Positions 1,095 through 64,000 of a stretch of 64,000 bases of DNA are shown here, in pieces. Position numbers and translations under genes: made by a program. The notes beneath the pieces were generated by a model, which saw nothing but the letters and a program-made list of their open reading frames with translations, was not told the origin of the DNA and searched no databases. Position 1 is the stretch's first letter, and every line of letters starts with the position of its first letter. The stretch comes from Gemmatimonadales bacterium (lineage in GTDB: Bacteria; Gemmatimonadota; Gemmatimonadetes; Gemmatimonadales; GWC2-71-9). The stretch covers positions 13,231 to 77,230 of the forward strand of contig JBAUHI010000086.1 in assembly GCA_049680185.1 (NCBI GenBank). Direction: 5' to 3'.

Positions 1095-1132
1095 TAAATG
1101 GAGTCCCCCGCCCTCGTTTCCGGGGGCGGGGG
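1095..1132 (-). terminator. stem-loop terminator downstream of rnpB
   Basis: On the minus strand, CCCCCGCCC-CCGGAAACGA-GGGCGGGGG forms a 9-bp GC stem, followed by ACUCCAUUUAU. Confidence 0.6.
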
Positions 1133-1535
1133 ACACGGGTCAAGCCGTAAGCCGAGTTCTGTTTCCCGTGCCTTGCGGCGCGGAAGATGGTCATCTGTCT
1201 GGGACGGCGGTCGCCCGACGCCTCAAGCAGCCTACCCGCGGCTCACCGTTGCCGGTGTTGTCGGTGCGGGCCGCACCTCGCCGCTTATTTGGCCTTGCTC
1301 CGACCGGGGGTTACCGTGCCACCCCTGTTACCAGGGATGCGGTGGGCTCTTACCCCACCGTTTCACCCTTGCCTGTGTCCTCCGCTTGCGCTCGGGACCA
1401 TCGGCGGTCTGCTCTCTGTTGCCCTGTCCGTCGCCTCTCGGCGCCCAGGCGTTACCTGGCGATCTGCCCTGTGGAGCTCGGACTTTCCTCGATGGAGTCT
1501 CCCCCACCGCGACCATCGCGCTCGGCCCGTGGGAC
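1133..1535 (-). ncRNA. rnpB: RNase P RNA, bacterial type A
   Basis: The reverse complement carries the universal motifs GAGGAAAGUCCGAGCUCCACAGGGCAG, GCCAGGUAACGCCUGG, GGGCAACAGAGAGCAGACCGCCGAUGG, GCAAGGGUGAAACGGUGGGGUAAGAGCCCACCGC, GGAGCAAGGCCAAAUA, GGGUAGGCUGCUUGAG and ACAGAACUCGGCUUAC. A P1 pairing CACGGGCCGAGC / GGCUUGACCCGUG is possible. Ends are approximate to within about 10 nt. Confidence 0.92.
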
Positions 1536-5838: not shown

Positions 5839-6005
5839 GCGCGCAGGAACGGCACCGGGCGGGAGGATCCCCATCGGCGGACGGAAGTGCGGGTCGGAAA
5901 AGGACGAGCGGCAAGTGCGGCAGGGCGCGCGAACGAACGGGCGGAACACAGGCGAGTTGTGGAGCGACCAACGGAGACCGGTAGAGGCCAGCTCCTCTTC
6001 TCCCT

Positions 6006-6095
6006 CTGTCGTAGCGCGTTGTCTCTTGTGTCCTTTCCCCTCCTCCCCTCTTCTTCTCCTTCTCTCGTACTGTGTTGTCTCTTGTCGCTTGTCTC
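6006..6095. repeat. pyrimidine-rich copy of the dispersed GAGACAACGCAGTACGAGAG element
   Basis: CTCTCGTACTGTGTTGTCTC (6062-6081) is the reverse complement of the 20-mer core with 1 mismatch. A second partial core lies at 6006-6025. TTCCCCTCCTCCCCTC (6035-6050) is the complement of GAGGGGAGGAGGGGAA. It lies between the convergent AraC and MCP genes. Confidence 0.75.
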
Positions 6096-6111
6096 TTCTC
6101 CTCGGTCGCAA

Positions 6112-7671
6112 TCAGGCCTTCAAGTGTGCGGTCGCGGTCCGGAGCCGCTCGGCGAGGAGGGTCAGTCGCTCGGCGGAGGTGGTGAGCTCGGTCATCGCCT
6201 GGATCTGCTGCTGGGCGGAACGGGCCGCGGCATCGGAACTGCTCGCCGCACCGTGGCTCACCGCACTCACTCGGTCGAGGACCTGGCGCAGCGCGGCTTG
6301 GTGTTCGGCCTGGGCCTGGGTGCTCTCTGCCGCCGCCGCCACCCGCTCGGCGGAGCGCCGGACGCCGGCGGTGAGGTCGAGCAGCGCCTCGTCCGCCTCC
6401 CGTGCCACCCGCGCGATGTCCTGTACCTGGGATCCTCCGGAACTCATCGCTCGCTCCGCCGAGGCGATCCCCGCCTGCAGTTCCCCGACCACCTCCCCGA
6501 CCTCCCGAGCCGACCGCCCCGCCTGGGCGGCCAGGGTGCGCACCTGTTCCGCCACCACACTGAATCCGTGGCCATCGCCCTCCGCGCGCGCCGCCTCGAT
6601 GGCGGCATTGAGCGACAGGAGGTGCGTCTGCCGCGCGATCACGGCGATGGTCTGTGCAAAACTGCCGATGTTCGCACTCATCGCCGTCAGCTCCGACACG
6701 ATCCGGCCCGTGGTGGCCACCTCGTTGCCGACCGACACCAAGGTGTCGCTCGCGCGCGCCACTCGCTCCCGGGCCCGTTCCGCCACGGCCACCAATCGCG
6801 CCTCTTCATCCTCCAGGGTACGGAATCGCTCTCGCTGCAGTGCCGTCTCAGCCGCAGTACCCTCCCCTTGGCGCCGGCTGTCCTCCGCCATCAATCGCTG
6901 TTGCTGCAGGTCGTGGGCAAGGCGGTCAGCGGCCCCGGAAAGGGCATCGGCCGAGCCCTGAAGTGCGCCGGTCGTGGCCGACAACTCACCCGCGACCTTG
7001 GCCATTTCGTTGGAGTCCTGCTGCACGGCCGCGAGCAAGGTGGCCGTGGCGGATGACATCTGGTCGAATGCGGTCTCGACGGCGCCCACGGGATCGAGCG
7101 TTTTGGTGGACACCCGGAAGGTGAGATCGCCGGTGCTCGCCCGCCGAAGCCCTTCCGCAATGCGGCGCAACCGCGCCTCGGTGACGGCCGCGCGGTCGCG
7201 GAGCCCGATGCCTACGATGCTCACGATGGCAGCTTCGACAAGGGCGGCCGCGGACAGGTCCCCGCCGTTCGCGATCCACTGCGCCACCAGCACGACGATC
7301 CCGCCGGAGAGGGCGGCAAAGGCACCGGGAAGGCCTTCGTCGTCGGCGGCGTACGGGAGCGTCGCGACCAGCGGGAGCACGCCGACCCCGACCAACCCTG
7401 ACAGCGCGATCGGCGCTCCGGTGATGATCAGGTCGAGCAGCAGGGCGCCGACCCACGCGGAGCGTCCCGCAAGTCCGCGGCGTCCGAGGATCCCCGCACC
7501 GAGATTCGCAGCGCCGCCGAGGAGCAGGAGTTCCACCACCTGACTCCACGCCACATCGCCACCCGTCGCCGGCCCCGCACAGATGAGTGCGGCCACGGCG
7601 CCGAGCACCAGCCACCACCGGCGGCGGACGGTGCGCTGAAAGAGGGCGGAGGAGCTGGGCGGAGGGGCCAT
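6112..7671 (-). CDS. methyl-accepting chemotaxis protein with multi-TM N-terminal region
   Basis: The highly conserved MCP signalling hairpin LLSLNAAIEAARAEGDGHGFSVVAEQVRTLAAQAGRSAREV is present. A HAMP-like segment follows about 160 aa of hydrophobic helices. Confidence 0.9.
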   Translation of the reverse strand: MAPPPSSSALFQRTVRRRWWLVLGAVAALICAGPATGGDVAWSQVVELLLLGGAANLGAGILGRRGLAGRSAWVGALLLDLIITGAPIALSGLVGVGVLPLVATLPYAADDEGLPGAFAALSGGIVVLVAQWIANGGDLSAAALVEAAIVSIVGIGLRDRAAVTEARLRRIAEGLRRASTGDLTFRVSTKTLDPVGAVETAFDQMSSATATLLAAVQQDSNEMAKVAGELSATTGALQGSADALSGAADRLAHDLQQQRLMAEDSRRQGEGTAAETALQRERFRTLEDEEARLVAVAERARERVARASDTLVSVGNEVATTGRIVSELTAMSANIGSFAQTIAVIARQTHLLSLNAAIEAARAEGDGHGFSVVAEQVRTLAAQAGRSAREVGEVVGELQAGIASAERAMSSGGSQVQDIARVAREADEALLDLTAGVRRSAERVAAAAESTQAQAEHQAALRQVLDRVSAVSHGAASSSDAAARSAQQQIQAMTELTTSAERLTLLAERLRTATAHLKA

Positions 7672-27270: not shown

Positions 27271-27305
27271 GACCCACGACCCACGACACTTGACTCACGA
27301 CCCTT
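27271..27305. repeat. tandem heptamers GACCCAC GACCCAC GACACTT GACTCAC GACCCTT
   Basis: Five period-7 units fill the sufB-sufC spacer and abut the sufC RBS (GGAG at 27307-27310). Confidence 0.65.
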
Positions 27306-45027: not shown

Positions 45028-45810
45028 ATGCGCGGTTCGATGATGCTTCTGACGCTGGCCCTCGCGGCGGGGACCGCCGCACCGGCAGCGGCGCAGGATT
45101 TCAGCTGGAAGGGCACGTTGGCGGCGGGGAAGATGCTCGAGGTGAGAGGCGTGATCGGCGGGATCCACGCCAGTCTCGCCTCGGGAGATCAGATCGAGGT
45201 GACGGCGACCAAGCGGGGGCGCCACAGCGATCCCGCAGACGTGAAGATCCAGGTGGTGCCGTGGGATGGCGGGGTCACCATCTGTGCCGTCTACCCGACG
45301 CCGCGGCGCGCCCGCCACGAGAACGAGTGCGCCCCGCAAGGCGGCGGTTCGATGAGCACCGACAACAACGATGTGTCGGTGGAGTTCACGGTGAAGGTGC
45401 CTGCCAAGGTGAACTTCACCGGGGCCACGGTCAACGGGCAGGTGTCGGCAGACGGCCTGGGCGGCGATGCCGACCTGTCGACCGTCAACGGCGACGTATC
45501 AGTGAGCGCTGCCGGAGTGGTCGAGGCGACGACAGTGAACGGATCGATCGACGCCACGAGCGGGAAGAACAACTGGGAGGGAGCGCTCAAGTTCAACACC
45601 GTCAACGGCGGGATCACACTGCGGGTGCCCGATGGGCTGAATGCCGACCTGCGGGCGTCCACCGTCAACGGCAGGATCACCACCGACTTCCCGGTGACCG
45701 TCACGGGCTCGATGAGCCCGCGGAGCCTCAAGGGGAGGATCGGGACTGGCGGACGGGATCTCGACATGGAGACGGTGAACGGGTCGATCGAGATACGGAA
45801 GAAAGGCTAG
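45028..45810 (+). CDS. DUF4097-family beta-helical repeat protein (second paralogue)
   Basis: Signal peptide MRGSMMLLTLALAAGTAAPAAAQ. Repeats TVNGQVSA, TVNGDVSV, TVNGSIDA, TVNGGITL, TVNGRITT and TVNGSIEI. Confidence 0.8.
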   Translation: MRGSMMLLTLALAAGTAAPAAAQDFSWKGTLAAGKMLEVRGVIGGIHASLASGDQIEVTATKRGRHSDPADVKIQVVPWDGGVTICAVYPTPRRARHENECAPQGGGSMSTDNNDVSVEFTVKVPAKVNFTGATVNGQVSADGLGGDADLSTVNGDVSVSAAGVVEATTVNGSIDATSGKNNWEGALKFNTVNGGITLRVPDGLNADLRASTVNGRITTDFPVTVTGSMSPRSLKGRIGTGGRDLDMETVNGSIEIRKKG

Positions 45811-45891
45811 AGGCTGGAGGCTGGGGGAGGCTAGAGGCTAAAGGCCAAGAGCTGAGGGCTTGAAGCTGATAGCAGATAGCTGATAGCTGCC
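45805..45891. repeat. tandem heptamer array (13 units; GGCTNGA then AGCTGAT types)
   Basis: GGCTAGA GGCTGGA GGCTGGG (GGA) GGCTAGA GGCTAAA GGCCAAG AGCTGAG GGCTTGA AGCTGAT AGCAGAT AGCTGAT AGCTGCC. Unit 1 contains the TAG stop of the DUF4097 gene. Confidence 0.85.
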
Positions 45892-50515: not shown

Positions 50516-51657
50516 CCCGACCATCCGCACCCTTCCTCCGCGGTCAGCGGATCGACCCCCAGGCGATCACCGGCCAGGAGACCGCCGCCGACCTGATCGA
50601 CTCGGCCTTCCTGGCCTACAACGCCGGCCGGCTCAAGGAAGGGTGCAAACTCTTCACCGAGCGGATGCTCGATCCTTCCGTGACCGTCGGGATGAGCCTG
50701 ACCGGTGCGATGACGCCAGCGGGGCTCGGGATGAGCACGCTGATCCCGCTCATCGAAGCGGGCTTCGTCGACTGGATCATCTCGACCGGCGCCAACCTGT
50801 ATCACGACGCGCACTTCGGGCTGGGGCTTCGGCTCCACCGCGGCCGCCACGATGCCGACGACGTGGAGCTCCGCGAGCACGGCGTGGTGCGGATCTACGA
50901 CATCTTCTTCGACTACGACGTCCTCCTCTCCACCGACGCCTTTGTGCGCGAGGTCTCGGCGCGGCCGGAGTTCCAGCGCTCGATGGGCACCGCCGAGTAC
51001 CACTACCTCCTCGGCGGCTACATCCGGGAGCGGGAGCGGGCGCTCAAGCTGTCGCGGCGGTCGCTGCTGGCGGCGGCGCACGAACTCGACGTGCCGATCT
51101 ACACCAGTTCCCCCGGCGACAGCTCGATCGGGATGAACGTGGCGGAGCAGGCACTGGCCGGGAGCGAGTTGCGCTTCGACGTGAGCACCGACGTCAACGA
51201 GACCGCGGCGATCGTGCTCGAGGCCAAGCGCACCGGCGGCAAGAGCGGCGCGCTGATCGTGGGCGGCGGGAGCCCCAAGAACTTCCTGCTCCAGACCGAG
51301 CCGCAGATCCAGGAAGTACTGGGCATCGACGAGCGTGGCCACGACTACTTCCTGCAGATGACCGACGCCCGTCCCGATACCGGCGGACTTTCCGGCGCCA
51401 CCCCGGCGGAAGCGGTGAGCTGGGGGAAGATCGACCCGGAGATGCTGCCGGGGACGGTGGTGGTGTACATGGACAACACCGTGGCGCTCCCGCTCCTCAC
51501 CGCATACGCCCTCAACCGCCACGAGAAGCGGCCCTTGAAGCGGCTCTACGCCCGGCGCGAGGCGATGATGACCCGGCTCCGCACCGAGTACCAGGCCGCG
51601 ATCGCATTCCGAGACCGCCGAGCGGGTGAGGCTGCGGACACGGCCAGCGGCCGTTGA
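50512..51657 (+). CDS. deoxyhypusine synthase-family protein
   Basis: DHS-like blocks [27 protein letters not shown] and GGGSPKNF. I trimmed the start to the GTG overlapping the LOG stop (GTGA). Confidence 0.82.
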
Positions 51658-53189
51658 ACCCGCTCCGGCGCACCGAACCGATCAAGCTCTCGATCGCGTA
51701 CCGGTGGTACGCACTCGGGCTGCTGTCGGTCCTGAACCTCCTCAATTATCTCGACCGCAACGTCATCTTCGCGCTGTTCGAACCGATCAAGCGCGATCTC
51801 CACCTGACCGATACCCAGCTCGGCTGGCTGGGCTCGGCGTATATCCTCGTCTTCTCGATCGCCGCACTTCCCTTCGGCGTGCTGAGCGATCTCCGCTCCC
51901 GCCGCGCGGTCATCGCGTGGGGCGTCTCGCTCTGGAGCGCCTTTACCGTGCTGGCCGGGTTGGCGCGCGGGTTCGGGCAGCTCTTCGTGACACGCGCGGC
52001 GGTGGGGATCGGCGAGGCGGCCTTCGGGCCGGCGTCCCAGTCACTGGTGGCCGATTACTTCCCCGGCAAACGACGCGCTTTCGCGATGGGGATCCTGTCG
52101 GCGGGGCTCTCGCTCGGCGGGGTGATGGGACTCTGGCTGGGCGGAAAGCTGGAAGCGGTGTACGGGTGGCGCGTGGCGTTCATGGCCGTCGGGTTGCCGG
52201 GATTCCTACTGGCAGTGTTCGCGGTGCGCCTGGTGGACCCGACCCGGGTGCTGACACCGGTCAAGGTGACCCACCTGCTCAAGGAACTTCGGGTCGGAGT
52301 CGACACGCTCATCGGCCAGTTCAACCCGTTCCTCGCCACCGTGGTCGTCGGTGCCCTCGCGGCACTCCTGGCCGATTTCGCGTTCGACGCGAGCTCGGAC
52401 ACCGTCACGGCGATCCTGGCCATCGCGGCAGGGCTCGGGTTGGCGCTGAACGTATGGTGGTGGGTGGTGCAGATCCGGCATGACCGGATCGAGGACATCC
52501 CGTTCGGTCGCGGCGTGTCGGAGGTGTTCGTCGAGCTGGTCCGCGCCACTCGGCTGGTCTTCCGGACGCCGACCCTGGTGTACGTATTCCTCTCGGGGGC
52601 GCTGGTGTCGTTCGGACTGAACGGCCTGGTGGGCTGGGGGGCGACGTTCGCGAGTCGCGAGCTGGGCTGGAGCGCGGCAGAAGCGGCGGCGCACCTGGGG
52701 GAATGGGGACTCATCTCCGGGACGGCGGGCACGCTCTTCGGCGGCATCTTTGCCGACTGGCTCCGGAAGTACACCGTGGCGGGACGGGTCTGGGCCGGGA
52801 CGATCGGGCTCCTGATCGGCGGCGCCCTCGCGGTGTGGCTGGTGACGATCCGCGACCCGAGGCAGTTCGTGACGGTCTTCGCGGTGTCGTTCTTCTTCCT
52901 CACCTGGTACAACGGCCCCCTCGCGGCGACGATCTTCGACGTGGTGGCGGCCCGGGTGAGCGCCACGGTCGTGGGCGCCTACCTCCTCTTTACCCACGTG
53001 GCCGGCGACGCGATCGCGTTTCCGCTGGTGGGAGTCCTCTCCGACAAGTTCGGCATCGACCGGGCAATGATCCTCCTCCCGATCGTGGCGGTCATCGGCG
53101 GCCTGGCACTCCTCCCGGCGGTGCGCACGGTGGGTGCCGACAGCATGCGGATGACGGGTGAGTTCCCGGTGGTGGCGGCGGACGGGTGA
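51654..53189 (+). CDS. MFS transporter
   Basis: 12-14 TM helices and MFS signature [12 protein letters not shown]...[10 protein letters not shown]. The TTG start overlaps the upstream stop (TTGA). Confidence 0.85.
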
Positions 53190-53194
53190 AGCGC

Positions 53195-53270
53195 AAGGGG
53201 AGAAGAAGCAGGAGAAAAGAGACAACGCAGTACGAGAAGCTGAGACGATGAGGGGAGGAGGGGAACGGAG
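53195..53270. repeat. purine-rich copy of the dispersed GAGACAACGCAGTACGAGAG element
   Basis: GAGACAACGCAGTACGAGAA lies at 53219-53238 and GAGGGGAGGAGGGGAA at 53250-53265, directly after the MFS stop. Confidence 0.75.
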
Positions 53271-53285
53271 CGTCTGCGTCTTGAT

Positions 53286-53388
53286 CTGTCATCCCGAGCG
53301 TAGCGAGGGACCTACCTTGGCGAGCACGGCGCCATTGGCCCTACTCGATATCGGCAGGCAAGGTCCCTCGCTACGCTCGGGATGACAG
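53286..53388. repeat. perfect 28-bp inverted repeat (GTCATCCCGAGCGTAGCGAGGGACCT hairpin element)
   Basis: Left arm CTGTCATCCCGAGCGTAGCGAGGGACCT (53286-53313) is the exact reverse complement of the right arm (53361-53388). The loop is 47 nt. Confidence 0.85.
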
Positions 53389-53441
53389 GTCGTGGGTTCG
53401 TCCCTGTCCAGCCGCGCAACCCGCCACCCGTCACCCGCCAC

Positions 53442-53805: not shown

Positions 53806-53886
53806 GGTGAACGGTCAGCGGTGAACGGGGGTGTCGGACGCATCGCCCTTCCAGGGTCCGTTCACTGTTCACTCTTCACCGTTCAC
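53806..53886. repeat. inverted GTGAACG/CGTTCAC heptamer blocks between copA and csoR
   Basis: GGTGAACGGTCAGCGGTGAACGGGGG faces CCGTTCACTGTTCACTCTTCACCGTTCAC. The right block overlaps the copA stop codon. Confidence 0.75.
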
Positions 53887-56200: not shown

Positions 56201-56377
56201 TCGGTGAACGGTGAAGGGTCAACGGGGCTTCGAAGTCCGTCATCCTGAGGCCTGAAGGGCCGAAGGATCGATCCGCCGACGAGCCGATCCTTCGCTCTGC
56301 TCAGGATGACGTTGCTCGTTTGAGATGACGGCCTGCTTCGGCCGTTCACCCTTGACCGTTCAGCGCTCACCGTTCAC
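56201..56377. repeat. composite nested palindromic element inside the cop operon
   Basis: Outer arms are heptamers: GGTGAACGGTGAAGGGTCAACGG (56201-56227 region) and CCGTTCACCCTTGACCGTTCAGCGCTCACCGTTCAC (56341-56377). The inner hairpin pairs GTCATCCTGAG (56239-56249) with CTCAGGATGAC (56300-56310). The core pairs CGAAGGATCG with CGATCCTTCG. Confidence 0.8.
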
Positions 56378-56965: not shown

Positions 56966-56982
56966 GGTTGGACTCCTCAAAA

Positions 56983-57052
56983 GGCTGGAGGCTGAGGGCT
57001 AGAGGCTCGCTGGTAGCTGGTAGCTGGTAGCTGGTAGCCAACCACCAACTCT
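56983..57052. repeat. tandem heptamer array (GGCTNNN x4, TGGTAGC x4, CAAC-type x2)
   Basis: GGCTGGA GGCTGAG GGCTAGA GGCTCGC TGGTAGC TGGTAGC TGGTAGC TGGTAGC CAACCAC CAACTCT. It lies between the predicted cop promoter and the copZ RBS. Confidence 0.85.
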
Positions 57053-58719: not shown

Positions 58720-58803
58720 TAGAGGGAATGTGGCATCAAAATCGAAGACCGTCAGGGGGAGCCGATCGCCCGTCCTCCGCCTCGCCTCGTGTTCTCTGCG
58801 GTC

Positions 58804-59001
58804 TCACTCGACGATCACCTCGGAGAAGACCGTCTCGCCGGTCACGAGCATCCGCCGCAGATAGGGCCGACAGAGCCCGCAGCGCGCCCCACAGCTGGTG
58901 TCCTCGACCAGTTTCTGGAGGTCCCACCCCGCCTCTCGGGCACGCGGGAGCAGCTCCGCGAACCGGACGTTCTGGCAGACACAGCGATCGATGGTGGGCA
59001 T
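58804..59001 (-). CDS. BFD-like (2Fe-2S)-binding domain protein
   Basis: Cys pattern C-x-C ... CGARCGLC (MPTIDRCVCQNV...SCGARCGLCRPYL) is typical of Bfd-like [2Fe-2S] domains. Confidence 0.7.
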   Translation of the reverse strand: MPTIDRCVCQNVRFAELLPRAREAGWDLQKLVEDTSCGARCGLCRPYLRRMLVTGETVFSEVIVE

Positions 59002-59021
59002 GCAGCAATGCTAAGCGGAAA

Positions 59022-59297
59022 TCGAGACACGAGGAAGGAGACAAGAGACAACGCAGATCGGTGCGGCGAGAAGAAGAGGGGAGGAGGCGAACGAGGCGAC
59101 ACGAGAAAGGAGACAACGCAGGTGGGGGCAGGGAGCGGAAGAGGTAGAGGAGGGGAACGGGAGAGCGGCATGAATTCTGATTTGCGTTCGCCTTTTCCCG
59201 TCTTCCCCCTCCTCCACCTCTGTCGGCCCTGTCCCGTCGTCCTCTCCCTCCCCTCTCGTACTGCGTTGTCTCGTTTCTCCTGTCTCTGCATTCTCAC
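59022..59297. repeat. about 275-bp strand-asymmetric inverted repeat built from the GAGACAACGCAG element
   Basis: The left half is purine-rich (GAGACAACGCAG at 59045 and 59110; GAGGGGAGGAGGCGAA at 59076-59091). The right half is pyrimidine-rich, with CTCTCGTACTGCGTTGTCTC at 59253-59272. The arms are imperfectly complementary around the centre near 59170-59190. Confidence 0.8.
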
Positions 59298-59298
59298 C

Positions 59299-59535
59299 TC
59301 ACTCCTCTCGCCTCCCCTCGTAGAACCTCACCTTCTCTGCCAGGCGCCTGATCCGGATGGCATCGGCCGGCTTGAGCCAGCCGGCTTCCTCACCGGTCCG
59401 CGCCCACTGCTCCGGCGGCGTACCTCGAAGCGCCGGGCACCCGCGGTGCGCGTAGCGGGCCAGCGCCTCGGCGAGTGCCTGGCGATAGTGGGGGAGCAGG
59501 AGTGCAGGGGTCGAGTCCACGGCGCAGTATGGCAT
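59299..59535 (-). CDS. hypothetical protein (78 aa)
   Basis: GC3-rich ORF MPYCAVDSTPALLLPHYRQALAEALARYAHRGCPAL... No recognisable motif and no clear RBS. Confidence 0.4.
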   Translation of the reverse strand: MPYCAVDSTPALLLPHYRQALAEALARYAHRGCPALRGTPPEQWARTGEEAGWLKPADAIRIRRLAEKVRFYEGRREE

Positions 59536-63670: not shown

Positions 63671-64000
63671 AGGCTGTGTTGGTAGCGGGGCTGCTGGTAG
63701 GCTATCAGCTATCAGCTATCGGCTATCAAGGGACTGCGAGCTATCGGCTATCGGCTATCAGCTACCTGCCGGGCAATGAGATCACGATCGGCGGCCCGCG
63801 CCACTCGCCACTCGCCACCGGGCGTGCCAAGGCACGCCCCGGCAGCCACACCTTCGCGATTGCCAAGGGGCATTTTCTCCTCGACAAGAAGCCGATCCAG
63901 CTCCTCTCCGGTGAGCTGCACTACACCCGGATCCCGCGAGAGTACTGGGCCAATCGGCTGGCGATGGCGAAGGCGATGGGACTGAACACCATCTCCACCT
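63667..64000 (+). CDS. glycoside hydrolase family 35 beta-galactosidase, N-terminal fragment (runs off window end)
   Basis: HFLLDKKPIQLLSGELHYTRIPREYWANRLAMAKAMGLNTIST matches the GH35 N-terminal core. The only in-frame canonical starts are ATG 63667, GTG 63676 and TTG 63679. It is not in the ORF track because there is no stop in the window. Confidence 0.8.
   Translation, partial: MKAVLVAGLLVGYQLSAIGYQGTASYRLSAISYLPGNEITIGGPRHSPLATGRAKARPGSHTFAIAKGHFLLDKKPIQLLSGELHYTRIPREYWANRLAMAKAMGLNTIST
63680..63821. repeat. heptamer arrays (TGGTAGC, CTATCAG/CTATCGG, CCACTCG) inside the GH35 5' region
   Basis: TGGTAGC (63680), TGGTAGG (63695), CTATCAG CTATCAG CTATCGG CTATCAA (63702-63729), CTATCGG CTATCGG CTATCAG CTACCTG (63741-63768), CCACTCG CCACTCG CCACCGG (63801-63821). 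Confidence 0.85.

Follow-up and report, generated by a model that had tools for sequence, protein, structure and literature searches.

Genes and repeat units in the window

At 59002–59298 of the window, by which we mean the whole 64-kb stretch of DNA analysed here, a non-coding spacer separates two minus-strand genes. Upstream of it lies a conserved hypothetical gene of 78 amino acids (59299–59535), with homologues 70–89% identical in relatives and no Pfam domain found, and downstream lies a 65-amino-acid, Cys-rich (CxC...CxxC) gene (58804–59001). The latter, labelled 'Bfd-like' in a first-pass annotation, matches the Pfam domain Fer2_BFD weakly (E = 0.041). Repeat finding and a profile search across the 64-kb window place this spacer in a family of six copies of a ~65–70-nt unit at three loci, referred to here as A, B and C. 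Locus A follows a methyl-accepting chemotaxis protein (MCP)-like gene with HAMP and MCPsignal domains (6112–7671, minus strand), locus B follows an MFS transporter gene (51654–53189, plus strand) and locus C is the spacer itself.

The unit has the rough layout GACACGAG..GGAGACAAGAGACAACGCAGTACGAGAG..GAGAAGAAGAGGGGAGGAGGGGAAC, and the ~70 nt common to all three loci are 75–91% identical. Two copies at locus A, A1 (6031–6101, minus strand) and A2 (5987–6037, minus strand), are arranged in tandem with a spacing of 56 nt; together they make up a tract at 5987–6104 that starts 7 nt after the stop codon of the MCP-like gene and has no complementary arm. Unit B (53199–53271, plus strand) is single and unpaired, within a tract at 53190–53275 that directly follows the MFS transporter stop on the sense strand of that gene. 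At locus C, a minus-strand unit, C− (59220–59292), faces two tandem plus-strand units, C+1 (59025–59097) and C+2 (59095–59163).

A 20-nt core, GAGACAACGCAGTACGAGAG, occurs exactly within C− (59253–59272, minus strand), with one mismatch at 53219–53238 (plus strand) and 6062–6081 (minus strand), and with three mismatches at 6006–6025 (minus strand); 100 dinucleotide shuffles give an expectation of no such sites by chance. Shorter GAGACAACGC cores are present at 59045, 59110 and 6016–6025. The tail GAGGGGAGGAGGSGAA is found exactly at 6035–6050 (minus strand), 53250–53265 (plus strand) and 59076–59091 (plus strand), where 0.17 occurrences would be expected. Purine strands contain 80–82% A+G and 3–6% T, a strand asymmetry far beyond chance, and each tract carries 6–10 GGA and 2–3 GGAGG motifs; units A1 and B also share a perfect 14-nt mirror repeat, AGGGGAGGAGGGGA. 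On all these points, namely the 20-mer sites and their mismatch counts, the short cores, the GGAGG-rich tail beside them and the purine skew of one strand, the sequence bears out the first-pass annotation.

The position of the unit relative to genes is also regular. A, B and C− start 0–7 nt after stop codons, the purines lie on the strand that is sense for the gene upstream, and the core starts 26–30 nt after the stop at all three loci. We rejected a coding sequence or read-through peptide, as the overlapping open reading frames are out of frame with the upstream genes. Because the frame of the unit differs between loci, the unit is non-coding, and the description of a genuine multi-copy non-coding repeat stands.

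One long hairpin at locus C and single arms at loci A and B

The spacer at 59002–59298 folds as one long imperfect hairpin from either strand, with predicted energies of −138 kcal/mol on the minus strand (z = −5.2) and −145 kcal/mol on the plus strand (z = −6.0). Its 104 pairs comprise 65 GC, 31 AU and 8 GU. Read on the minus strand, the purine-rich arm that holds C− (59180–59297) starts 1 nt after the stop of the 78-aa gene, on the sense strand; it is followed by the loop ATGAATTCT at the centre of the inverted pair (59171–59179) and by the arm that holds C+1 and C+2 (59022–59170), which is purine-rich on the plus strand and thus serves as the pyrimidine-rich 3′ arm on the minus strand. The proposal that two copies face each other at 59022–59297 to make a long imperfect hairpin is therefore upheld, at a length of ~100 bp.

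On the minus strand, the C+ units form the leader of the bfd-like gene and end 20 nt before its ATG. The leader of this gene is pyrimidine-rich and devoid of a Shine–Dalgarno sequence in four species (59002–59024 in the window; orthologues at L003 9660–9697, L169 930–960 and L171 550–582; for example, CCTTCCTCC-GTG), which suggests Shine–Dalgarno-independent initiation of the bfd-like gene. Past the other end of the gene, after the bfd stop, a moderately purine-rich tract, TGAGACCGCAGAGAACACGAGG..., is partly conserved in three species (58740–58803, minus strand, in the window; L003 9896–9947; L169 1159–1215) and ends in GCCCCCCTGAC.

Both arms are present at locus C only; the loci near 6000 and 53200 are unpaired single arms. 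A long hairpin was rejected at locus A, where shuffled sequences fold better than the tract (z = +3), and at locus B, where a neighbouring palindrome at 53283–53391 is all that pairs. Single units, at 80% purine, fold worse than their shuffled counterparts and are not palindromes of the repetitive extragenic palindromic (REP) type. Whether its partner arm was lost or was never there, the unit at A and B does without the hairpin, which is thus not essential to it.

The palindrome just after unit B is unrelated to the unit and belongs to a second dispersed family, GTCATCC(C/T)GAG...CTCGGGATGAC, with 41-nt arms of 88% complementarity. Another member lies at 56238–56311 of the window, and others occur in relatives (L003 15330–15430, L170 1455–1487 and L174 about 2325–2360). 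Unlike the purine unit, this family is recognizable across several Gemmatimonadales genera.

Distribution of the core and unit

The closest species representative is DASSGV01, in which the flanking genes have 88–96% amino-acid identity to those of the window. The exact 20-mer has no match in 185,579 representative species genomes. A degenerate core, GAGAMAACRCAGWWCGAGRR, gives 69 matches in the same genomes against ~70 expected by chance, of which the sister-species contig alone is relevant, and a degenerate pattern, GGAGAMAMGAGAMAACGCAG, gives 17 matches in JGI metagenomes, all in unrelated low-GC contexts. An nhmmer profile of the unit was searched against the window, loci L003–L007, the MFS loci of 80 Gemmatimonadales genomes (648 kb) and the MCP loci. 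Beyond its own source units it found one copy, a diverged one at the orthologous locus C in the contig of a third relative (L169); the 80 MFS loci yielded no copy beyond the sister contig. The repeat family is thus very narrow in distribution, and the element is species-restricted. The first-pass annotation, in proposing a pattern search across genomes, had allowed that a core with no relatives elsewhere would speak against its reading, and this is largely the outcome: besides the sister-species contig, matches are at the level of chance.

Contigs of the same strain in Logan from two sequencing runs (SRR28011631 and SRR28012370) are 100% identical to the window at loci C and A and are therefore uninformative on strain-level variation; the MFS protein was not on record in this comparison.

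A search of the window with Rfam 15 returned RNase P alone above the gathering threshold, away from the repeat. The hairpins gave sub-threshold, miRNA-precursor-type noise and locus A gave no match. The RNase P RNA is of bacterial class A and lies at 1132–1529 (minus strand, 264.6 bits).

Orthologous sites keep the tract and replace its sequence

Loci A, B and C recur at the same site in 3–7 related genomes, with variable length and sequence. After the MFS stop, the sister species (L173) has two diverged core units, an 88%-identical species (L174) has a clean GAGAAGT heptamer array, and more distant genomes have GAGGGGAGGAAGGTNG ×2 (L176), GTGGGAA ×9 (L243) or GAGAACG ×3 with an inverted partner (L212). 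After the MCP stop, the sister species (L253) has the same conserved flanks around a 45-nt purine tract that lacks the core, and two 75%-identical species carry spacers of 175 and 228 nt, each a purine arm followed by its complement; these form hairpins (z = −7 in L254 and −9.2 in L255) that resemble neither one another nor the window in sequence. In the spacer that separates the 78-aa gene from bfd, the purine hairpin is replaced in the sister species (L003) by an array of the GTGAACN type, which makes a hairpin of its own (GTGAACAGTGAAC...GTTCACTGTTCAC). In L169 the purine arm is short, the pyrimidine arm is long and the core, GGAGAAAACGCGGTACGAG, has diverged; L171, a fourth species, has the pyrimidine-rich leader alone; and in more distant genomes the two genes are separated by no spacer at all. 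Across species, then, what persists is the site, together with the strand bias and in many cases the hairpin, and sequence and length turn over completely. Free variation between close relatives, the second outcome that the earlier reading had counted against itself, is likewise largely what is seen, as judged between sister species (the same-strain contigs from two samples being identical).

A neutral reference for this turnover is given by the four-fold degenerate sites of the MFS gene, at which the window and the sister species are 72% identical; orthologous cores match at 14–15 of 20 positions in the sister species and at 17 of 20 in L169. By contrast, the three best cores within the window match each other at 18–19 of 20 positions. 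This contrast, drawn from some ten short sequences, is a sign of recent copying or homogenization among arrays and not of a motif held across species. A conserved binding site, one of the possibilities raised by the first-pass annotation, accordingly finds no support, as the core is unconserved past a very narrow clade and its orthologues are near neutral identity. Weak constraint on the first 12 nt of the core, GAGAMAACGCRG, may still be present, because the L169 core keeps 17 of 20 positions and the sequences are few.

The same comparisons bear on mobility. [quoted passage not shown] RNA hairpins formed by those known elements can influence mRNA stability or termination; a REP is a short palindrome, and a MITE is bounded by terminal inverted repeats and target duplications. 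A non-autonomous MITE-like or REP-like element that targets the position just after stop codons would account for a ~70-nt unit at three dispersed loci that begins at the stop codon each time, and for the make-up of the whole of locus C as an inverted pair. But the units cannot self-pair, and the ends of A, B, C− and C+ show neither terminal repeats nor target-site duplications, so that the noted absence of ends typical of insertion sequences or MITEs is confirmed. Nor was any orthologous site empty: other purine arrays occupy the sites between the same conserved flanks (for example, in the window versus L253), and the units therefore appear to evolve in place. Neither the 816 kb of related loci nor the public collections yielded a further copy. 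By these testable features the purine unit is not a MITE, a REP or an Rfam family; the suggestion of a mobilizable unit is unsupported, and we regard the case for a mobile element as weak and its probability as very low.

A trans-acting RNA is similarly improbable. The purine units, as parts of 3′ untranslated regions, might bind ribosomes, CsrA or Hfq or pair with the bfd leader, or else a CU-rich antisense transcript might act as an anti-Shine–Dalgarno small RNA. Such a role would suit the GGA and GGAGG motifs of each tract and the pyrimidine-rich leader, without a Shine–Dalgarno sequence, of bfd in the four species; units A and B are 75–82% complementary to the bfd leader over ~70 nt, and unit B can form a perfect GAGACAACGCAG duplex with it. 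There is, however, no Rfam family match and no promoter-plus-terminator unit that would delimit a small RNA, the sequence is unconserved between species, and the GGA motifs are not displayed in hairpin loops. The earlier idea of a small-RNA module gains no support, given the Rfam result and the inability of single copies to self-fold, and we give any trans-acting RNA little credence.

Polarity of inverted repeats and heptamer arrays in Gemmatimonadales

Across 816 kb of Gemmatimonadales loci, a simple inverted-repeat finder returned 51 inverted repeats, of which 22 have a 5′ arm with a purine content of 60% or more and none has one of 40% or less. By the same thresholds, 1.19 Mb from other phyla yield 12 purine-first and 5 pyrimidine-first repeats, with almost no extreme cases. 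Strand-skewed tracts in 3′ flanks of genes are purine-sense in 21 cases and pyrimidine-sense in 5, and in 5′ flanks the bias is reversed (9 versus 4); the polarity and flank counts are not fully independent, as several tracts lie at orthologous sites. Most purine-rich tracts adjoin stop codons on the 3′ side, and many arrays are followed by their own reverse complement, so that a transcript of either strand reads purine arm, loop and pyrimidine arm. With the purine arm on the left, both strands have purine followed by pyrimidine, and both genes of a convergent pair consequently see purines after their stops. Six of the 22 purine-first repeats lie between divergent genes according to a crude gene caller, and the class thus extends beyond 3′ ends.

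The cleanest example of the class is a near-perfect 55-bp purine-then-pyrimidine hairpin built of AGAGAAAG repeats at L227 1996–2130 (z = −17.7), apparently between divergent genes.

The window is rich in clean intergenic heptamer arrays, including GTGAACN, GCTGGTA, GCTATCA and AGGCTNG. Arrays of GTGAACN directly follow stop codons, often with an inverted partner (1548–1634, 53851–53886 and 56342–56377 in the window; L003 9590–9690). Other period-7 tandem arrays lie at 57009–57038, 63701–63764, 45804–45889, 56982–57007, 27271–27303, 53415–53441 and 63799–63818, with units that include GCTGGTA (×4.3, 100% identity), GCTATCA (×8.6), AGGCTNG, AGCTGAT, GACCCAC and CGCCAC(C/T). At L174 2916–2963, GTGAACA, GTGAAGA and GAGAAGA heptamers grade into each other.

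We considered whether the purine unit itself is a pure heptamer array, and this origin is at most partly supported. Tandem Repeats Finder on the unit reports GAGACAA ×3.3 at 6075–6097 alone, lag-7 autocorrelation is weak, and of the four arrays (A, B, C− and C+) A alone shows significant 7-nt phasing (p about 0.007). The unit is therefore at most a degenerate, composite descendant of heptamer arrays.

These counts also bear on the main rival to the reading that we favour, in which the tracts are functionless, slippage-prone arrays, biased by the polymerase towards heptamers, that arise in intergenic DNA, grow and decay, the partner arm occasionally arises by template switching, the 20-mer is a recent duplication and the hairpin is incidental. 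Slippage explains the turnover well. Period-7 arrays are many in the intergenic parts of the window, unit number and sequence vary freely between sister species at about the neutral rate, single arms without a partner exist, and tracts occur in all kinds of intergenic context. The over-representation of heptamers in bacteria has reportedly been attributed to polymerase slippage (Mrazek 2007, as cited in PMC4679880 and PMC4692102). The strict polarity is explained poorly: a split of 22 to 0 does not obviously follow from slippage, and the bias to sense-strand purines beside stops (21 versus 5), the persistence of a tract at one orthologous site in 4–7 species despite sequence turnover and the recurrence of the same positional rules in unrelated phyla are left unaccounted for. 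We consider a wholly functionless origin rather unlikely, although more credible than any of the other alternatives.

Relation to known repeats

The closest published analogue is the G-rich heptamer repeats of Xanthomonas (GGGAATC) and Nostoc (GGGGA(C/T)T), which are mostly transcribed and include 70–75 convergent pairs that form inverted repeats (Rehm et al. 2015, PMC4692102). The purine units resemble them in being intergenic and strongly strand-asymmetric and in forming a convergent pair (C− and C+). They resemble them in position as well, with A, B and C− 0–7 nt after stops in the sense orientation and C+ antisense, 20 nt upstream of bfd, and in recurring at one intergenic site across sister species while length and sequence vary. 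Unlike those repeats, the family described here is built not of a clean heptamer array but of a composite unit of ~65 nt whose 20-mer core includes C and T, has four G-tracts in one arm only (C−), and resides in a host of a different phylum. A positional rule common to three phyla suggests a common cause, either mechanistic (termination or RNA stability) or mutational.

The resemblance brings with it the possibility of a structure formed at the level of DNA, such as a G-quadruplex, an H-DNA triplex or a cruciform, that affects replication, transcription or local genome stability. Homopurine–homopyrimidine tracts, including the 14-nt mirror repeat in A1 and B, would be suited to this, as would the positional rules shared with Xanthomonas and a canonical G-quadruplex motif in the C− arm. 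That motif is the sole one in the family: A, B and C+ have no (G3N1–12)×4 motif, and we rejected the G-quadruplex as a common feature. Such motifs are in any case not distinctive, because the window, at 67% GC, holds 33 of them. The conserved core is not G-rich, and even the Xanthomonas repeats lack a demonstrated function (PMC4692102). A non-B DNA structure as the basis of the element is very unlikely.

Among other simple repeats, lineage-abundant intergenic short-period arrays, for which slippage is the proposed source, include the cyanobacterial STRR and the TAACTGA repeats of Beggiatoaceae (PMC4679880). Unlike the purine unit, TAACTGA repeats lie mainly upstream of start codons and are not purine-skewed (PMC4679880). 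Period-7 arrays (GTGAACN, GCTGGTA, GCTATCA and GAGAAGT) abound in the window and its relatives, which in this recall the long simple sequence repeats with units of 5–11 nt, especially heptanucleotides, that are reportedly the subject of Mrazek et al. 2007; the unit itself differs from such repeats in being degenerate and dispersed as a 65-nt block. We would class the Gemmatimonadales element, as a variant, with the strand-asymmetric intergenic simple-sequence repeats known from other phyla.

A possible transcript boundary

Taken together, we favour, with a probability of about 0.5, a reading in which the unit is a lineage-restricted member of the strand-asymmetric simple-sequence spacers of its clade, the core has been copied among arrays, and the hairpin acts as a transcript boundary. 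The 275-bp pair is real, but it is a local example of fast-evolving purine-rich spacers in a group of soil bacteria, rather than a transposon or an RNA gene or binding site of wide conservation.

The history of the unit under this reading would have two parts. Arrays would grow and change in place by slippage and recombination, and one composite unit of ~65 nt, partly made of GAGACAA-type heptamers, would have been copied or homogenized among the three arrays, the likely route being gene conversion or recombination between similar purine tracts. Copying of this kind explains a near-identical 20-mer without constraint across species.

As to function, a transcript that runs from the 78-aa gene towards bfd would contain the imperfect hairpin of ~100 bp, which, if transcribed, probably marks a transcript boundary. 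It may do so independently of direction, by making RNA polymerase stop or pause, by RNase III processing or by protection of the 3′ end. A boundary is the most likely role in view of the position after stops, the symmetry of the two strands, a polarity like that of bidirectional terminators and the local lack of canonical terminators: a consensus scan found no canonical promoter or terminator in the spacer and places it in a region without canonical terminators. Bidirectional terminators have the layout A-tract, stem and U-tract, which the purine-then-pyrimidine polarity mirrors. Like them, and like the U-tract-less terminators proposed for high-GC genomes, the purine-first repeats occur at gene 3′ ends and between convergent genes and form a similar hairpin from both strands.

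The comparison with intrinsic terminators is less favourable. Locus C does have a stable hairpin at a gene 3′ end (−138 kcal/mol, 1 nt past the stop of the 78-aa gene), but stems of this class are 30–110 bp in length, compared with 5–15 bp in intrinsic terminators, and the U-tract of 7–9 nt after the stem is absent, the sequence there being GAUUUCCGCUU. Template switching in quasi-palindromes can keep arms complementary without selection. The missing U-tract, the existence of single arms and the possibility of arm complementarity without selection all count against a boundary role. In vitro, mycobacterial RNA polymerase failed to terminate at hairpins devoid of a U-tract (PMC3993855).

Single arms might act by another route. 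Pyrimidine strands contain 40–45% C and 14–15% G over 86–149 nt, a composition in keeping with that of rut sites, which are unstructured, C-rich and G-poor over about 80 nt; the C-rich, G-poor strand is unstructured at A and B and sequestered in the hairpin at C. Where unpaired, this strand could offer a Rho loading site for antisense read-through.

A bolder version of the boundary reading extends it to the lineage, with purine-first inverted repeats as bidirectional, U-tract-free boundaries or insulators in which polarity and position are selected and sequence is free, and in which units in 3′ untranslated regions might additionally pair with the bfd leader. This extension is speculative and, in our estimation, unlikely.

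The individual element matters little, and the wider pattern of arrays after stops is the more useful result: interest in the specific 20-mer is low, and the class-level polarity rule in Gemmatimonadales is of moderate interest. In a poorly studied phylum, and in a region with no canonical terminators, arrays exchange their sequence and keep their site, their purine-sense bias and the polarity of their hairpins. On the practical side, purine tracts break assemblies and create spurious open reading frames in metagenome-assembled genomes.

Genuine reading frames may be affected too. In the sister species, the orthologue of the 78-aa gene (L003 9371–9637, compared with 59299–59535 in the window) reads into the GTGAAC repeat before its stop (…AESAVNSEQ*), and repeats can therefore remodel the C-termini of the proteins encoded by neighbouring genes.
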